Shown here: in pieces, positions 1 through 5,243 of the stretch
How the letters are laid out: each line of letters starts with the position of its first letter
How positions within the stretch are numbered: the first letter of the stretch is position 1
Virus record (IMG/VR): IMGVR_UViG_2671180556_000001
Location: 1 to 5,243 of that record
Source: a virus
Lineage: Duplodnaviria > Heunggongvirae > Uroviricota > Caudoviricetes
DNA length: 5,243 nt
Reading direction: 5' to 3' (one strand)
Made by a program: the position numbers and the translations under genes
The notes under the pieces: model-generated
What the model was told of the DNA's origin: nothing
Databases searched by the model: none
The model's input: the letters and a program-made list of their open reading frames with translations, nothing else

Positions 1-123
1 AAGGCCAGCATGACTGAGCTTATCGAAATCATGTTCTGGTTCGGCTCAGAGCGCAACGTGCGGTGGAGTGATGACTCCTGGCGAGAGTATGAATGGTCAC
101 AACGAAAAGGGAGAGCTGCATGA
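1..123 (+). CDS. 3' end of an upstream gene, truncated by the window edge (frame 1 reads ...[37 protein letters not shown]); possibly ninB-like by position
   Basis: Frame 1 is open from position 1 to a TGA at 121-123, which overlaps the next gene's ATG at 120-122 (ATGA junction). The ninB assignment rests only on typical nin-region gene order, not on recognised sequence. Confidence 0.4.
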   Translation, partial: KASMTELIEIMFWFGSERNVRWSDDSWREYEWSQRKGRAA

Positions 124-647
124 CTATCAAATCAAATACGCCATCACACGACAAGGACTGCTGGCAAACGCCGCTTTGGCTTTTTGATGCACTGGATATT
201 GAGTTTGGATTCTGGCTGGATTCAGCTGCGAGCGACAAAAATGCTCTGTGCGCTCACTGGCTAACTGAGGCCGACGACGCGCTAAATTCTGAGTGGATAA
301 GCCACGGTGCAATCTGGAATAACCCACCGTACAGCAATATCAGGCCGTGGGTGGAAAAAGCCGCTGAGCAGTGCATACAACAGCGACAGACGGTAGTTAT
401 GCTTGTGCCAGAGGATATGTCAGTCGGATGGTTCAGCAAGGCTCTGGAGAGTGTCGACGAAGTTCGCATTATCACTGATGGACGGATTAATTTTATCGAA
501 CCATCGACAGGGCTGGAGAAGAAGGGAAACAGCAAAGGCTCCATGCTGCTGATTTGGCGACCGTTCATCAGTCCTCGACGAATGTTTACTACTGTATCCA
601 AAGCGGCATTGATGGCGATCGGGCAGGGCGTCAGGATGGCGGCATGA
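120..647 (+). CDS. Phage DNA N6-adenine methyltransferase (Dam-type orphan methyltransferase)
   Basis: The translation contains the catalytic NPPY motif (IWNNPPYSN) typical of N6-adenine methyltransferases, and the overall size fits the small phage Dam family. A GGGAGAG Shine-Dalgarno lies 6-7 nt upstream of the ATG at 120; the track's in-frame ATG at 93 lacks an RBS, so 120 is preferred. Stop is TGA at 645-647. Confidence 0.8.
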
Positions 648-826
648 GGCGACAGCGAAGAAGTATCACCGACATCATCTGCGAAAACTGCAAATACCTT
701 CCAACGAAACGCTCCAGAAATAAACGCAAGCCAATCCCAAAAGAATCTGACGTAAAAACCTTCAACTACACGGCTCACCTGTGGGATATCCGGTGGCTAA
801 GACATCGTGCGAGGAAAACAAGGTGA
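644..826 (+). CDS. ninE: NinE protein (60 aa, lambda nin region)
   Basis: The ATG at 644-646 overlaps the methyltransferase stop (ATGA). The product [60 protein letters not shown] matches my recollection of lambda-family NinE. The track ORF 554..826 is the same frame with a spurious N-terminal extension. Confidence 0.75.
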
Positions 827-916
827 TTGACGCGATGATTTATTCGGGGCTATATTCCTCACGCGCCAGCAAAATCTGGCGTCGGGATTAGCACCCCGGA
901 TATCGAAACGGTGCAT

Positions 917-937
917 AACCGCGCTGGCGGTTTTTTT
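917..937 (+). terminator. Candidate rho-independent terminator downstream of ninE
   Basis: Perfect 6-bp stem AACCGC (917-922) / GCGGTT (927-932) with a 4-nt loop GCTG, followed by a T run through 937. Confidence 0.5.
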
Positions 938-1101
938 ATGCGCTAAGCACAGTCACATTCGCGATTTATGGCGGGCTGTGTGGGGGAGCCGAAAGGCTCG
1001 CCGGATGTTTCGACCGGTAGTGCTAACCCCGCACAGTTCGCCACCACGATGATTAGCACCTGACGGTGGCGAGGTAAAAATTATCGAAACGCGAGGTCAT
1101 T

Positions 1102-1779
1102 ATGGCTGTTCAAATTTCTGTCGAAAACCTTTCCCCTGTTACCTATAACCAGATCCCCGTAATTACTACTGAACTGTTGGCTCACCTTTACGGAACAAAA
1201 ATCAAAAACATTTCTGATAACTTTCTGAACAACACGACGCGATTCATGCCCGGAAAGCATTACTTTAAAATTGAAAAAAACGAATTACGCGAGTTTAAGA
1301 ACAGACCCGAAACAATCGGGTTAGTTGGTAAAAATGCCCGCTCCCTCATCCTCTGGACAGAACGCGGCGCAGCCCGTCACGCAAAAATGCTCGAAACCGA
1401 TCAGGCGTGGGATGTGTTCGAAAAACTGGAAGACTGCTATTTCAGCCAGTGCGAGAAAAATACTGGCAAACAAGAGAAGAAGCTCAACGGGCTTTCCGCA
1501 AAAGAAACAGACAGCCTTGTATGGCTGTGGGATTATGCCAACCGCTCACAGGCATTGTTCCGTGAGTTGTATCCCGCATTAAAACTGATTCAGTCTGGCT
1601 ATTCCGGCATATGCCACGACTACGGCTATGAGTTCTCGTATATCATCGGGAGGGCGAGAGACGTTTTAATCAATCACACACGAGATGTTGATATTAATGA
1701 GCCAGACGGACCAACGAATCTTTCCGCATGGGTAAGGCTTAAGAACAAAGAATTACCTCCTTCACTACATCGCTACTGA
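1102..1779 (+). CDS. ORF6N/KilA-N-like domain protein (putative phage DNA-binding regulatory protein)
   Basis: 225-aa ORF with a GAGGT Shine-Dalgarno 5 nt upstream of the ATG. The N-terminal region ([16 protein letters not shown] ... [14 protein letters not shown]) resembles the ORF6N domain signature as I recall it. The C-terminal half is unassigned. Confidence 0.65.
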
Positions 1780-1796
1780 CAATTGACAACTTAACA

Positions 1797-1820
1797 AACC
1801 CAGCTTCGGCTGGGTTTTTT
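1797..1820 (+). terminator. Candidate rho-independent terminator after the ORF6N gene
   Basis: 8-bp stem AACCCAGC (1797-1804) / GCTGGGTT (1809-1816) with a TTCG tetraloop, running into a T tract that ends at 1820. Confidence 0.6.
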
Positions 1821-1853
1821 ATTGGTGAATTTTCAATATGAGAGGACATGACA

Positions 1854-2576
1854 ATGAACGAGCTGATAAATAGCAACGTCATCAAAATGACCAGCATTGA
1901 AATCTCTGAGCTTACAGGTAAGCGTCATGACAATGTGAAACGTACTATCGAAATGCTGGCTAAAAATGGTGTTATCCGACATCCTCAAATTGAGGATTGT
2001 GGAAGAATCAATGGGTTAGGCTTAAATCAAAGTTTTCGTGTGTATGTATTCGAAGGCGAACAAGGTAAGCGAGACAGCATTATTGTCGTTGCCCAGTTGT
2101 CGCCGGAATTCACCGCTCGTCTTGTTGACCGTTGGCGAGAGCTTGAAGACGCTGCGGTTAATATCCCCAAAACTCTACCAGAAGCGTTGCGCCTTGCTGC
2201 TGATCTTGCTGAGCAGAAAATGCAACTGGAAAACCAGCTCGCAATTGCCGCACCTAAAGTTGAGTTTGCCGATCGCGTTGGCGAGGCCAGTGGAATTTTG
2301 ATTGGAAACTATGCAAAGGTTGTTGGTATTGGTCCAAACAAACTGTTTGCGTGGATGCGCGAACACAAAATCCTTATTGCTTCAGGTTCCCGGCGCAATG
2401 TGCCAATGCAGGAATATATGGATCGCGGCTATTTCACAGTGAAAGAAACAGCGGTCAATACAAATCACGGAATACAGATATCGTTCACCACAAAAATCAC
2501 CGGGCGTGGTCAACAGTGGCTGACCAGAAAGCTGCTCGATAACGGAATGCTGAAAGTAACAGGGGAGGCTGCTTAA
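1854..2576 (+). CDS. Phage antirepressor-family protein (N-terminal Rha regulatory domain, C-terminal KilAC/Ant domain)
   Basis: The N-terminus carries the Rha-family motif ([22 protein letters not shown]) and the C-terminal half resembles antirepressor KilA-C domains ([14 protein letters not shown]...). GAGAGGA at 1840-1846 sits 7 nt before the ATG at 1854, whereas the track's ATG at 1848 is only 1 nt from it, so 1854 is preferred. Stop is TAA at 2574-2576. Confidence 0.8.
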
Positions 2577-3181
2577 TGGCTAAACCAGCGCGAAGGAAAT
2601 GCAAAATATGCAAGGAATGGTTTCACCCGGCATTCTCAAATCAGTGGTGGTGCTGCCCGGAACACGGAACTCAATTAGCACTCGAACGACGAAGTAAAGA
2701 ACGCGAAAAAGCGGAAAAAGCAGCAGAGAAGAAACGACGACGAGAGGAGCAGAAACAGAAAGATAAACTGAAGATTCGAAAACTCGCCTTAAAGCCCCGC
2801 AGTTACTGGATTAAACAAGCCCAACAAGCCGTAAACGCCTTCGTCAGAGAAAGAGACCGCGACTTACCATGTATCTCGTGCGGAACGCTCACGTCTGCTC
2901 AGTGGGATGCCGGACATTACCGGACAACTGCTGCGGCACCTCAACTCCGATTTGATGAACGCAATATTCACAAGCAATGCGTGGTGTGCAACCAGCACAA
3001 AAGCGGAAATCTCGTTCCGTATCGCGTCGAACTGATTAACCGCATCGGGCAGGAAGCAGTAGACGAAATCGAATCAAACCATAACCGCCATCGCTGGACT
3101 GCCGAAGAGTGCAAGACCATCAAGGCGGAGTATCAACAGAAACTTAAAAAACTGCGAAATAGCAGAAGTGAGGCTGCATGA
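2576..3181 (+). CDS. ninG: NinG (Rap) recombination protein, a Cys-rich structure-specific endonuclease family
   Basis: 201-aa product with Cys clusters ([10 protein letters not shown]...WCCPEHG; CISCG...[11 protein letters not shown]) and a basic Lys/Arg-rich linker, matching lambda NinG in size and features. The start overlaps the previous stop (TAATG) and is preceded by AGGGGAGG. Confidence 0.8.
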
Positions 3182-3849
3182 ATATCTACGAAAGAATTGA
3201 TGGCAGCAAATACCGAAATATTTGGGTAGTTGGCGATCTGCACGGATGCTACACGAACCTGATGAACAAACTGGATACGATAGGATTCGACAACAAAAAA
3301 GACCTGCTCATCTCGGTTGGCGATTTGGTTGATCGCGGTACAGAGAACGTCGAATGTCTGGAATTAATCACATTCCCCTGGTTCAGAGCTGTACGTGGAA
3401 ACCATGAGCAAATGATGATTGATGGCTTATCAGAGCGTGGAAACGTTAATCACTGGCTGCTTAATGGCGGTGGCTGGTTCTTCAATCTCGATTACGACAA
3501 AGAGATTCTGGCTAAAGCTCTTGCCCATAAAGCAGAAGAACTTCCGTTAATCATCGAACTGGTGAGCAAAGATAAAAAATATGTCATTTGCCACGCCGAT
3601 TATCCTTGTAACGAATACGAATTTGGAAAGCCAGTTGATCCTCTGCAGGTAATCTGGAACCGCGAACGAATCGGCAACTCACAAGACGGGATCGTGAAAG
3701 AAATTAAAGGCGCGGACACGTTCATCTTTGGTCATACGCCAGCAGTGAAACCACTCAAATTTGCCAACCAGATGTATATCGATACCGGCGCAGTGTTCTG
3801 CGGAAACCTCACATTGATTCAGGTACAGGGAGAAGGCGCGTGGGCATAA
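3178..3849 (+). CDS. Serine/threonine protein phosphatase (lambda phosphatase-like metallophosphoesterase)
   Basis: Metallophosphatase signature motifs are visible: GDLHG, GDLVDRG and GNHE. The N-terminal sequence ([35 protein letters not shown]) is close to lambda protein phosphatase as I recall it. The ATG overlaps the ninG stop (ATGA). Confidence 0.9.
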
Positions 3850-4328
3850 GAGAACTAAACCTCACCAAAGAACAGCACGAGTGGCTGAATGGCTGGCTTG
3901 AACTGTGGGGCGCATGGGTTTATTCAGGTCGTCTGGAAAAGCGCATGAGCAGCGTAATAGCGAAGTTCATGGAGAGCGTAGAGCCGGGAAGAGTTATGAC
4001 AAGGCCAATGTGTAATGATGATGATGGAATGTTGATTTCTCAGGTCGTCGATTCCGTCATGTACATTGACAAGAAAGCCTTCGGCATCCTCCTCAGCTAC
4101 TACGCTCATGGTTCTTCCAGGCACGCCATTGCATCTTACTATCATCGCGTCGCAAGACCTCGCAAGATGTTATGCCGGGGCGGCGGGCGCATTCAAAAAC
4201 CATCGCTCGCAACCTGTCGACGGGAAGTTGACGAAATCCTTAATGCCTCGTTGTTTATGATTTACCCGGTTCTGGATAGTGCGTTTAAAAACCGGAAACG
4301 TGTAGAGAAAATTAAACATGTAGCATAG
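3840..4328 (+). CDS. Q: Late-gene antitermination protein Q (non-lambda Q family, phage 82/21/Stx-phage type)
   Basis: The product carries the N-terminal LWGAWV motif that I recall from the small Q antiterminator family, and the gene sits directly upstream of a candidate late promoter. GGGAGAAGG at 3828-3836 precedes a GTG start at 3840, overlapping the phosphatase 3' end by 10 nt. The start is uncertain; the next in-frame ATG is at 3945. Confidence 0.7.
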
Positions 4329-4330
4329 AA

Positions 4331-4373
4331 CGTGTTGACATCATTGAGCAAATGAGCAACACTATTGGCATAA
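4331..4373 (+). promoter_or_regulatory. Candidate Q-dependent late promoter (pR'-like) and Q-engagement region
   Basis: A consensus -35 hexamer TTGACA lies at 4335-4340, just after the Q stop. I could not place a convincing -10 hexamer at 16-18 bp spacing (TATTGG at 4363-4368 and TAAGCT at 4371-4376 are at non-canonical spacing). The call rests on position plus the -35 match. Confidence 0.35.
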
Positions 4374-4418
4374 GCTGCCGTTAGTGACTCTTAAGTTGCA
4401 ACGGTGGCTTTTTTATTT
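4374..4418 (+). terminator. Candidate tR'-like intrinsic terminator
   Basis: 9-bp stem GCTGCCGTT (4374-4382) / AACGGTGGC (4400-4408) including two G-U pairs, a large 17-nt loop, then TTTTTTATTT (4409-4418). Confidence 0.45.
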
Positions 4419-4493
4419 GGGTCAGTCGTATAAAGGTCATTACGGAAGGCTGTTAACCTTCTTATCGTGGTTCGAGTCCACGCTGTCCCGCCA
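4419..4493 (+). tRNA. tRNA-Asn(GUU)-like gene, 75 nt including encoded CCA
   Basis: Manual cloverleaf: acceptor GGGTCAG/CTGTCCC (one T-T mismatch at pair 4-69), U8, D arm GTAT-AAAGGTCA-TTAC with G18/G19, perfect anticodon stem GAAGG/CCTTC with loop CTGTTAA (anticodon GTT), T arm CGTGG-TTCGAGT-CCACG, discriminator G, CCA. The anticodon loop and T loop resemble E. coli tRNA-Asn as I recall it. Confidence 0.55.
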
Positions 4494-4498
4494 AACAT

Positions 4499-4574
4499 GC
4501 TGGTTTAGCTCCAATGGTAGAGCAACTGACTTGTAATCATCAGGTCGCCAGTTCGATTCCGGTAGCCGGCACCA
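4499..4574 (+). tRNA. tRNA-Thr(UGU)-like gene with imperfect stems, 76 nt including CCA; possibly divergent or a pseudo-tRNA
   Basis: Acceptor GCTGGTT/AGCCGGC (7 pairs, two G-U), U8, canonical D arm GCTC-CAATGGTA-GAGC, anticodon loop CTTGTAA (anticodon TGT), T loop TTCGATT, discriminator A, CCA. The anticodon stem (ACTGA/TCATC) has only 3 Watson-Crick pairs and the T stem (GCCAG/CCGGT) has one A-C mismatch. Confidence 0.5.
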
Positions 4575-4577
4575 TAT

Positions 4578-4652
4578 GCGGGTACCGTATAATGGCTATT
4601 ACCTCAGCCTTCCAGGCTGATGATGCGGGTTCGATTCCCGCTACCCGCTCCA
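4578..4652 (+). tRNA. tRNA-Gly(UCC), glyT-like, 75 nt including CCA
   Basis: Perfect 7-bp acceptor GCGGGTA/TACCCGC, D arm GTAT-AATGGCTA-TTAC, perfect anticodon stem TCAGC/GCTGA with loop CTTCCAG (anticodon TCC), perfect T arm GCGGG-TTCGATT-CCCGC, discriminator T, CCA. The sequence is nearly identical to enterobacterial tRNA-Gly2 (glyT) as I recall it. Confidence 0.8.
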
Positions 4653-4665
4653 GATTTATTATCAG

Positions 4666-4688
4666 GCTCGCTTCGGCGGGCTTTTTTT
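4666..4688 (+). terminator. Rho-independent terminator after the tRNA cluster
   Basis: 6-bp stem GCTCGC (4666-4671) / GCGGGC (4676-4681) with one G-U pair and a TTCG tetraloop, followed by seven T (4682-4688). Confidence 0.6.
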
Positions 4689-4740
4689 GTATCTGCGTTA
4701 CACCATTAACTAATAAATCGAGTGCTTATCAGGAGGCTAT

Positions 4741-4965
4741 GTGAAAAAGCTGATGGTGACGATTGGTCCGTTCGAAACAGAAGTTAGTTTTCGTGTCGTT
4801 CAGGGGGAGAGTGTACTTGTTGAAGATGTATTTCATGGAAAATCAACAGGTCCTTATGTAAAAGAATATTTTGTCGACGCCACGGATGAAAATATTGAGG
4901 TGGTGTACGATTCCGTCAATCACCCTAATTTGATCATTAAGGCAAAATTGAAACCACTTTATTGA
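4741..4965 (+). CDS. Hypothetical small protein (74 aa), unknown function, in the cargo position downstream of the late promoter
   Basis: ORF with AGGAGG at 4731-4736 and a GTG start at 4741 (short 4-nt spacer); stop TGA at 4963-4965. I recognise no motif in the product. Confidence 0.5.
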   Translation: MKKLMVTIGPFETEVSFRVVQGESVLVEDVFHGKSTGPYVKEYFVDATDENIEVVYDSVNHPNLIIKAKLKPLY

Positions 4966-5017
4966 TCTGAGCGGGAGCAATCATAAAATATCTCTGGGTA
5001 CCCATAAGGAGATAAAT

Positions 5018-5227
5018 ATGTTTGTTGCTGAAGGGGTAATGGAAGATAAGGACAACAAAGGATGTGTTAAAGGTTGGGCTGTGGTAAGAAACTCGCCATG
5101 GCATCTTGTTGGGGTTTTTGCGACAGAGGAAGACGCGGAAATGGAAGCAAGAAAGACGGGAGATGAGTACGAGGTTCACTATGGCTCGCATCGAACAGGA
5201 AGTGATGATTTTGTCTGGGGGGAGTAA
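5018..5227 (+). CDS. Hypothetical small acidic protein (69 aa), unknown function
   Basis: Strong Shine-Dalgarno AAGGAG 7 nt upstream of the ATG at 5018; stop TAA at 5225-5227. The C-terminus is acidic (EEDAEMEARKTGDEYE). I recognise no confident family. Confidence 0.6.
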   Translation: MFVAEGVMEDKDNKGCVKGWAVVRNSPWHLVGVFATEEDAEMEARKTGDEYEVHYGSHRTGSDDFVWGE

Positions 5228-5243
5228 CAGTCGTTTAACCCCA

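Follow-up and report, generated by a model that had tools for sequence, protein, structure and literature searches.

The closest described relatives of the locus considered here are the Shiga toxin genes of lambdoid phages and the accessory cassettes known as morons. In Shiga toxin (Stx) phages, stx2, nanS-p, and other late genes are strongly induced by norfloxacin treatment, with transcription by Q-modified RNA polymerase described for stx2 and nanS-p (PMC8065619). According to Tree et al., the site downstream of the late promoter pR' serves for the insertion of morons in prophages of enterohaemorrhagic Escherichia coli (EHEC) (PMC4104026). The stretch of DNA analysed here, positions 1 to 5,243 of the IMG/VR virus record IMGVR_UViG_2671180556_000001 (hereafter the window; 5243 bases, all coordinates in its own numbering unless a locus is named), comes from an E. 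coli lambdoid prophage and spans its nin and late-regulatory region. At its right end lie two small open reading frames (ORFs), ORF1 and ORF2. There is very little doubt that they constitute a real and conserved moron of the late operon, an already known kind of element to which this pair adds a member. A possible function in the conflict between phage and host is a more tentative matter, and is considered after the evidence for the element itself.

An insert at the stx junction

Alignment of a matching prophage (L001) with phage JLK-2012 revealed an insertion of ~600 bp between two related terminator/GTATCYGCG sequences. ORF1, ORF2, and a single copy of the terminator make up the insert, which runs ~50 bp past the end of the window to the second terminator copy, GGCGGCCTTTTTTGTATCCGCG (L001 8931-8965, corresponding to approximately 5260-5294 in window numbering). 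JLK-2012 and its host, O55:H7 DEC5E, share the roi-ninG-ninI-Q-tRNA(Asn, Thr, Gly) backbone with the window, the ORF pair is absent from both, and the terminator is followed directly by tciA. Their homology to the window goes through ...GGCGGGCTTTTTTTGTATCTGCG, stops at 4697, and picks up again past the second terminator. The GC content of 4698-5243 is 42.3% (39.1% for ORF1), compared to 47.8% for window positions 1-4328.

The relation of this insert to the toxin genes can be read at a single nucleotide. An Stx2a-converting phage is identical to the prophages of O26:H11 11368 and of strain FHI_NMBU_10 through the last tRNA-Arg, the terminator, and TATCTGCG, and it departs into the stx2A leader at the very nucleotide where the insert begins (window base 4698); the ORF pair thus occupies the stx slot in the strict sense. 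Both of these prophages carry the same cassette behind tRNAs of another set (Ile, Arg, Arg) and behind other Q types, with cassette identity starting right past the last tRNA. Since either the Asn/Thr/Gly or the Ile/Arg/Arg set can stand ahead of the same cassette, the tRNA block and the cassette assort independently. A first-pass annotation, made from the letters of the window, had regarded the two frames as accessory cargo in the late-promoter slot behind Q and pR', and the junction held in common with the stx2 cassette, together with the insert-free JLK-2012 and O55:H7 sequences, bears this out. The same annotation had named the slot as a home of stx or bor. This is correct for stx, which uses the same junction, and incorrect for bor, which on the lambda map is located after Rz and not between Q and S.

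The likeness to the stx1/stx2 AB cassettes extends beyond the position of the left junction directly after a tRNA-proximal terminator. Both are two-gene units of similar small-subunit size, both stand between the Q/tRNA block and the nanS-p/lysis block, and their mode of expression, read-through from pR' under Q, is probably the same. However, the ORF pair has neither sequence nor fold similarity to Stx, no signal peptides, and no promoter-like site, and it is followed by tciA and tciB, whereas the STnc100 small RNA (sRNA), located after stx2B, and iraM follow in the examined Stx2a phage. In the matching prophage, RefSeq annotation places tciA (TerB-like), tciB (DUF3927), and nanS-p between ORF2 and the holin gene, which starts ~3.2 kb downstream of ORF2; the lysis cassette lies outside the window. 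Compared to the morons of Juhala and Hendrix (e.g., lambda bor and lom, HK97 gp15), the cassette is likewise an insert present in one and absent from another of two collinear phages, with sharp junctions, GC lower than that of its surroundings, its own terminator, and a late-region location. The classical morons, in contrast, are expressed in the lysogen from a promoter that they bring along, while here no promoter-like site was found and a terminator stands directly upstream. A megablast search of the cassette against the phage collection gave zero matches.

Several further observations concern the borders of the insert. The two related terminator copies flanking the cassette end in CTTTTTTGTATC(T/C)GCG. 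Cassette and terminator seem to move together, and the terminator may be where recombination exchanges the cargo of the stx locus. In phage PPyecE_EH1910 (L127 1661-2356), a RelE/ParE-type toxin-antitoxin pair occupies the same slot, between the methylase gene and tciA. The intergenic region between ORF2 and tciA (L001 8899-9130) contains convergent terminator-like hairpins, one on the plus strand (8931-8951) and one on the minus strand (9127-9114). Convergent genes of Hfq-bound anti-sRNAs were reported between a moron coding sequence and the next phage ORF in EHEC prophages (Tree et al.; PMC4104026). At the terminators flanking the cassette and in this intergenic region, a search for curated sRNA families in Rfam gave nothing above noise.

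ORF1 and ORF2 as genes

Both frames are under purifying selection, with a median ratio of non-synonymous to synonymous substitution rates (dN/dS) of 0.20 for ORF1 and 0.09 for ORF2, based on more than 120 comparisons of unique homologous coding sequences for each. They remain intact across genera even where identity falls to 29-40% (ORF1) or about 60% (ORF2). ORF1 matches PHROG 2571 over residues 1-72 (E 1.5e-26) and ORF2 matches PHROG 4280 over residues 1-69 (E 1.4e-38); both families are annotated as "unknown function", and RefSeq lists the products as hypothetical proteins. Purifying dN/dS, PHROG membership, and confident predicted folds show that ORF1 and ORF2 are genuine genes, far beyond chance reading frames. 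The homologues begin at the same positions (MKK.. in ORF1 and MFV.EGL in ORF2), which supports both start codons. A literature search with locus tags, protein accessions, and family identifiers found no publication on either protein.

These results agree with what had been read from the letters of the window. The sizes and coordinates of the two frames and both Shine-Dalgarno sequences were recovered as described (Table 1), and a terminator had been placed ahead of them at 4666-4688, where an 8-pair stem (4664-4683) followed by a T-run folds at -11.9 kcal/mol. The coding signal and the conservation at the same locus that had been proposed as a check were found, given the dN/dS values and the occurrence of the same pair in related prophages. 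The statement that the products have no recognisable motifs stands as well, in that no Pfam, NCBIfam, or PADLOC family was matched and the PHROGs carry no annotated role.

Table 1. Coordinates of the late-region features in the window
Feature	Position	Strand	Evidence or description
Q antiterminator gene	3840-4328	+	Pfam Phage_antitermQ, E 3.2e-24; phrog_943, E 1.2e-89; RefSeq "antiterminator Q family protein"
TTGACA hexamer, candidate -35 of pR'	4335-4340	+	Read from the sequence, 7 nt past the Q stop codon
Strong hairpin with U-run, tR'-like terminator	4372-4418	+	RNA fold -20.2 kcal/mol, z -4.3, followed by UUUUUUAUUU
tRNA-Asn (GTT)	4419-4493	+	ARAGORN; Rfam tRNA, 55.3 bits; RefSeq
tRNA-Thr	4499-4574	+	Rfam tRNA, 49 bits (4499-4571); RefSeq and phage JLK-2012 annotation; missed by ARAGORN
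tRNA-Gly (TCC)	4578-4652	+	ARAGORN; Rfam, 55.4 bits
Intrinsic terminator and GTATCTGCG, resident sequence up to the left junction of the cassette	4664-4697	+	Terminator scan, fold, shared with relatives
Moron insert, reaching past the window end	4698-5243	+	Alignment of L001 (matching prophage) with JLK-2012
ORF1 Shine-Dalgarno AGGAGG	4731-4736	+	4 nt ahead of GTG; invariant in three prophage contexts
ORF1	4741-4965	+	GTG start; 74 amino acids; acidic soluble protein; predicted six-strand beta-sandwich; PHROG 2571
ORF2 Shine-Dalgarno AAGGAG	5005-5010	+	7 nt ahead of ATG
ORF2	5018-5227	+	ATG start; 69 amino acids; strongly acidic soluble protein; predicted beta-beta-alpha-beta domain; PHROG 4280

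Transcription of the cassette

The Q gene is the upstream anchor of the late transcription unit. The TTGACA hexamer behind it is a candidate for the -35 element of pR'; a consensus scan found no matching -10. The hairpin at 4372-4418, just after Q, looks like the promoter-proximal terminator tR', and none of 200 shuffled sequences was equally stable. Upstream of ORF1, the consensus scan detected no sigma-70-like site in the window, in phage mEp237, or in two further divergent copies (L006 and L009), and the counts of promoter-like sites in these four contexts did not exceed the shuffle expectation. A terminator stands immediately ahead of the pair in two of the four contexts, namely the window and one metagenomic phage. 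On the other side, a terminator-like hairpin lies 33 nt past ORF2 in L001, and a related hairpin, AGCCTCGC-loop-GCGGGGCT-T5, follows ORF2 in mEp237 and in the metagenomic phage L009. As far as the scans can tell, the cassette appears to be a promoter-less, terminator-bracketed two-gene unit. Its position downstream of Q, the two terminators ahead of it, and the missing promoter-like site make Q-dependent expression probable, in line with the first-pass annotation.

Distribution and co-inheritance of the two genes

The cassette was found in 110 of 5426 complete E. coli genomes (~2%), in all cases on the chromosome, and the strains listed are mostly O26, O145, and other E. coli that produce Shiga toxin (STEC) or strains resembling enteropathogenic E. 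coli. Divergent homologues also occur as an adjacent, co-oriented pair, at 29-41% identity for ORF1 and 52-70% for ORF2, in phage mEp237, in prophages of an Erwiniaceae bacterium, Xenorhabdus, Yersinia, Pseudocitrobacter, and Scandinavium, and in many viral contigs. These copies usually occupy a slot behind Rz rather than the stx slot: in most loci with neighbours examined, the pair lies past the lysis cassette (Rz) and ahead of the terminase genes, and in one Xenorhabdus prophage, it stands just ahead of the holin gene. Another observation in a Xenorhabdus prophage that also has the ORF pair (L008 8891-9133) is a gene of the Acb2/Tad1-hairpin family directly after the spanin gene; this family is of the anti-CBASS/anti-Thoeris type.

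In 51 of the 74 distinct loci bearing ORF2, ORF1 is found upstream of it at a distance of 40-75 nt, and the two genes diverge together (Mantel r 0.78; 0 of 2000 permutations as high). Recombinants were nevertheless found, in which near-identical ORF1 accompanies an ORF2 that is 47% divergent, and the reverse. ORF1 occurs alone directly after Rz in Stx1a, Stx2a, and Stx2c phages, where it overlaps the Rz stop codon and no ORF2 remnant follows it. ORF2 occurs without ORF1 in genomes of Pseudomonas, Stutzerimonas, Azotobacter, Ralstonia, Bordetella, and alphaproteobacteria, and in the loci outside Enterobacterales, no other gene was found to be a conserved partner. The pair is a frequent association and no obligate two-part machine; given the solitary occurrences and the reassortment, the genes need not act together.

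E. coli and Salmonella also carry ORF2-like sequences of 41-46% identity on large conjugative plasmids. On IncF plasmids (pSCU-115-1, L129 7001-7156), the sequence is unannotated and located between the chorismate mutase gene and mig-14; on the Salmonella plasmid pLG26p2 (L130 5741-6216), the homologue belongs to a phage-like region and has a 68-codon ORF 53 nt upstream. The contexts of the plasmid-borne homologues are uninformative.

Protein properties and predicted folds

Both products are acidic, with isoelectric points of 5.2 (ORF1) and 4.7 (ORF2). Their maximum hydropathy over 15 residues is 0.75 and 0.81, respectively, and neither a hydrophobic segment, a hydrophobic N-terminus, nor a signal peptide was found, so both are probably soluble cytoplasmic proteins. 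AlphaFold2 predictions on family alignments gave a mean predicted local distance difference test (pLDDT) score of 90.7 for ORF1 and 86.1 for ORF2. The ORF1 model is that of a generic small beta-sandwich, whose best structural neighbours are carbohydrate-binding modules and lectin-like sandwiches. ORF2, with the motifs GWxVV, SPWHL, and YGSHRxGSDDF, is predicted to be a previously undescribed beta-beta-alpha-beta domain.

Searches for named relatives gave little. Foldseek found nothing at E <= 0.001 among viral models, and profile searches against PDB sequences returned noise only (E >= 0.16). No family of PADLOC-DB was matched at E <= 1 by either protein, and the anti-defence families of Pfam (e.g., Acb2_Tad1_hairpin) were not matched. 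A partial match of ORF2 residues 30-52 to Pfam DUF7336 reached 16.1 bits, below the gathering cut-off of 25 bits, and among ORF2 relatives, 3 of 77 matched DUF7336 at E <= 0.01. Several definite identities could be rejected. An Stx-like AB5 toxin is contradicted by the lack of a Pfam match, the lack of a hydrophobic N-terminus, and unrelated predicted folds; a lysis component (holin, antiholin, endolysin, or spanin) by the lack of a membrane segment and of an enzyme domain. For a SPOR peptidoglycan-binding domain, neither a significant sequence or fold match nor periplasmic export was found, the similarity being at noise level, and a virion protein was rejected as well.

The ORF2 domain in fusion proteins

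An exhaustive search with ORF2 yielded 209 representative clusters. Among the best 150 of these, ~15% are longer proteins carrying the ORF2 domain at one end. The remaining parts include TIR domains (P0080 and P0102), trypsin-like serine proteases (six proteins: P0094, P0136, P0139, P0162, P0207, and P0213), and an Mrr-type nuclease (P0103), and in two proteins (P0127 and P0143), an N-terminal ORF2 domain is combined with a C-terminal hydrophobic tail. The fused domains are 44-61% identical to ORF2, with E down to 1e-12, which makes their homology secure. Where the neighbours of fusion genes were readable, they comprised an Mrr nuclease with an AAA_13 ATPase, BrnT/BrnA and HigBA-like toxin-antitoxin modules, and a ThsB-type TIR protein, and this suggests that the fusion genes sit in defence or mobile regions. 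A small domain placed on interchangeable killing domains is the pattern of recognition modules in bacterial immunity. By analogy, a conflict-related role for free ORF2 is plausible, since it shares its domain with proteins of this interchangeable kind. For the host-modulating, anti-defence, or superinfection-related functions that the first-pass annotation had put forward as candidates, the fusions to TIR, protease, and nuclease domains are the sole support, and an indirect one.

Two groups of described proteins offer themselves for comparison. The anti-defence sponges Acb2, Tad1, and Tad2 resemble ORF2 in being small, soluble, acidic, phage-encoded, and single-domain; however, no sequence or structural relationship to them exists, and no signalling enzyme stands beside the examined fusions. 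Sensor modules of the SAVED, STING, and CARF style resemble the ORF2 domain in architecture, the one respect in which they are compared here: one small domain is found on TIR, serine protease, restriction-type nuclease, and hydrophobic-tailed proteins. The ORF2 domain differs from them in having only ~55 residues and in being unrelated in sequence and fold.

Some features of the fusion loci are reported as they were seen. For fusion proteins without an annotated N-terminal domain, relaxed Pfam scans were empty. The N-terminal part of P0079 contains RDEVTH, and the 255-residue product of a gene (L122 2520-3287) next to the trypsin-ORF2 fusion P0213 contains RHHCVH; by eye, both fit the RX4H spacing of HEPN RNases, but neither gave a profile match and no HEPN assignment is made. 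A conserved ORF of 68 codons lies 10 nt downstream of the Mrr-ORF2 fusion in two independent contigs (L131 7264-7470 and L132 1784-1990), and by eye, it does not resemble ORF1 or ORF2.

Proposed role and alternative explanations

The explanation that we favour assumes a mobile, promoter-less, Q-dependent late cassette with a role in phage-host conflict; taken as a whole, it stands at an even balance. In this model, a moron of ~600 bp with its own terminator has been inserted into the Q-dependent late unit at the stxAB junction. Behind the terminators at 4372-4418 and 4664-4693, and with no promoter-like site of its own, the cassette would be silent in the repressed prophage and would be read only late, when Q-modified RNA polymerase passes through from pR', together with nanS-p and the genes for lysis and the virion. 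ORF2 would be a free-standing copy of the domain that occurs on TIR, trypsin-like protease, Mrr-nuclease, and hydrophobic-tailed proteins, and it could bind the same partner or ligand as the fused modules, thereby blunting such effectors as a decoy or sponge; alternatively, free ORF2 may be the phage protein that the fused modules recognise. ORF1, in most cases but not of necessity inherited along with ORF2, would serve as an accessory module for binding. Between them, the two late-operon slots hold stx, a RelE/ParE pair, and an Acb2/Tad1-like gene in relatives, which points toward a conflict role. The parts of the model do not carry the same weight. A late-expressed conflict function falls just short of an even call. 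Doubtful, although worth stating, is the proposal that ORF2 founds an undescribed and widespread family of small immunity domains, whose free phage copies are decoys or co-assembling triggers of integrated-decoy sensors, and a specific decoy or sponge mechanism of ORF2 is unlikely.

Several points weigh against this explanation. The fusion proteins are mostly metagenomic in source and none was placed in Enterobacterales, which leaves a decoy without an established target in E. coli. Enzymes that synthesise a signal were not found beside the fusions examined, and this weakens the reading of ORF2 as a sponge. Late expression, as expected for this cassette, is unlike that of most known counter-defence genes, which are early. 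Each gene is found alone and the pair is reassorted. The structural searches produced no informative match, with generic neighbours for ORF1 and zero for ORF2, and no known defence or anti-defence family was matched in Pfam, NCBIfam, or PADLOC. Finally, the absence of a promoter is the result of a simple consensus scan.

The alternative that survives best is cargo protecting the lysogen, expressed from the repressed prophage and acting in superinfection exclusion or anti-phage defence, with ORF2 as a sensor. Morons in the late region of lambdoid phages often serve the lysogen (PMC8065619), the ORF2 domain is present on defence-like effector proteins, and the neighbours tciA and tciB are named in phage records for colicin and tellurite resistance. 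However, expression in a lysogen fits poorly with four contexts devoid of a promoter-like site, two of them with a terminator immediately upstream, and the proteins have no recognisable effector domain or membrane segment and zero PADLOC matches. This makes lysogen protection quite unlikely.

A contribution to the lysis programme, in which the proteins would tune timing or bind cell-wall material while co-expressed with holin, endolysin, and spanin, would suit the surrounding genes, and in Stx phages, Rz and ORF1 are coupled. Nevertheless, the gap between Rz and terminase is also a generic moron slot, and in the window's prophage, the distance from the pair to the holin gene is 3.2 kb, with tciA, tciB, and nanS-p in between. 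The similarities to SPOR and XepA are all at noise level, the predicted beta-beta-alpha-beta topology of ORF2 is unlike the SPOR fold, and without a signal peptide or membrane segment, neither protein would reach the wall before lysis. An accessory role in lysis is, therefore, distinctly unlikely.

Release at lysis leads to another proposal, namely that the products act outside the cell like Stx and NanS-p, with ORF1, for instance, as a small glycan-binding module on mucus or host surfaces. The slot and the presumed expression mode are those of stx and nanS-p, late stx2 and nanS-p are strongly induced by norfloxacin (PMC8065619), and the nearest structures to ORF1 are carbohydrate-binding modules and lectin-like sandwiches. 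Many phages, however, carry the pair without nanS-p, and an extracellular role is considered highly improbable. That the two genes form an obligate unit, whether as toxin and antitoxin or as a heterodimer, is scarcely credible. In its favour, both genes are small, stand side by side in one orientation, keep a strong synteny, and diverge together, and the RelE/ParE pair of PPyecE_EH1910 occupies the same slot; yet each gene is solitary in many genomes and recombinants exist, the genes are separated by a gap of 40-75 nt with no overlap, and no toxin-antitoxin, DNA-binding, or toxin family match and no promoter-like site were found. The idea of non-functional or decaying frames hitch-hiking in a tolerant intergenic slot, which the dispensability of the cassette (absent from JLK-2012) might suggest, has a negligible probability and is effectively refuted by purifying selection, cross-genus conservation, and confident structure predictions.

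Other features of the window

The gene order in the window is as follows: a Dam-type methylase, NinE, an isrK/C4-type antisense RNA module, two antirepressors, NinG, a NinI-type phosphatase, Q, three tRNAs, ORF1, and ORF2. The RNA module of the nin region is of the P1/P7 immunity type and covers 850-1048, with Rfam matches to the c4-a1b1 target (850-902, 50.6 bits), the Hfq-binding RNA isrK (863-937, 76.6 bits), and the C4 antisense RNA (964-1048, 75.1 bits). Tandem antirepressor genes follow directly downstream, the first at 1102-1779 (ORF6N/P22AR) and the second at 1854-2576 (Rha/KilAC). The location of the module directly upstream of both genes suggests that antirepressor expression is under antisense control, like that at P1 c4-ant and at the isrK locus of Gifsy-1.

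Implications for the stx locus and its phages

ORF1 and ORF2 represent two uncharacterised families, which in Enterobacterales lambdoid phages are usually found together in the late operon. Among the cargo slots of E. coli phages, the one they occupy in the window has the greatest medical importance, and it is seen here, at nucleotide resolution, to trade stxAB for other two-gene cassettes, which helps to explain how cargo is acquired and swapped. Being promoter-less and terminator-bracketed, the cassette probably follows the induction logic of Shiga toxin. If its function turns out to be mundane, the analysis still provides an annotation for two hypothetical proteins present in ~2% of complete E. 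coli genomes. The domain fusions make the cassette a reasonable candidate for follow-up, and the ORF2 domain, a common free protein in prophages, is a concrete lead to a possible new sensor or decoy module in the conflict between phages and bacteria. If ORF2 does belong to a family of small immunity domains, then a novel type of conflict cargo would occupy the stx slot in the non-Stx prophages of O26 and O145 STEC.

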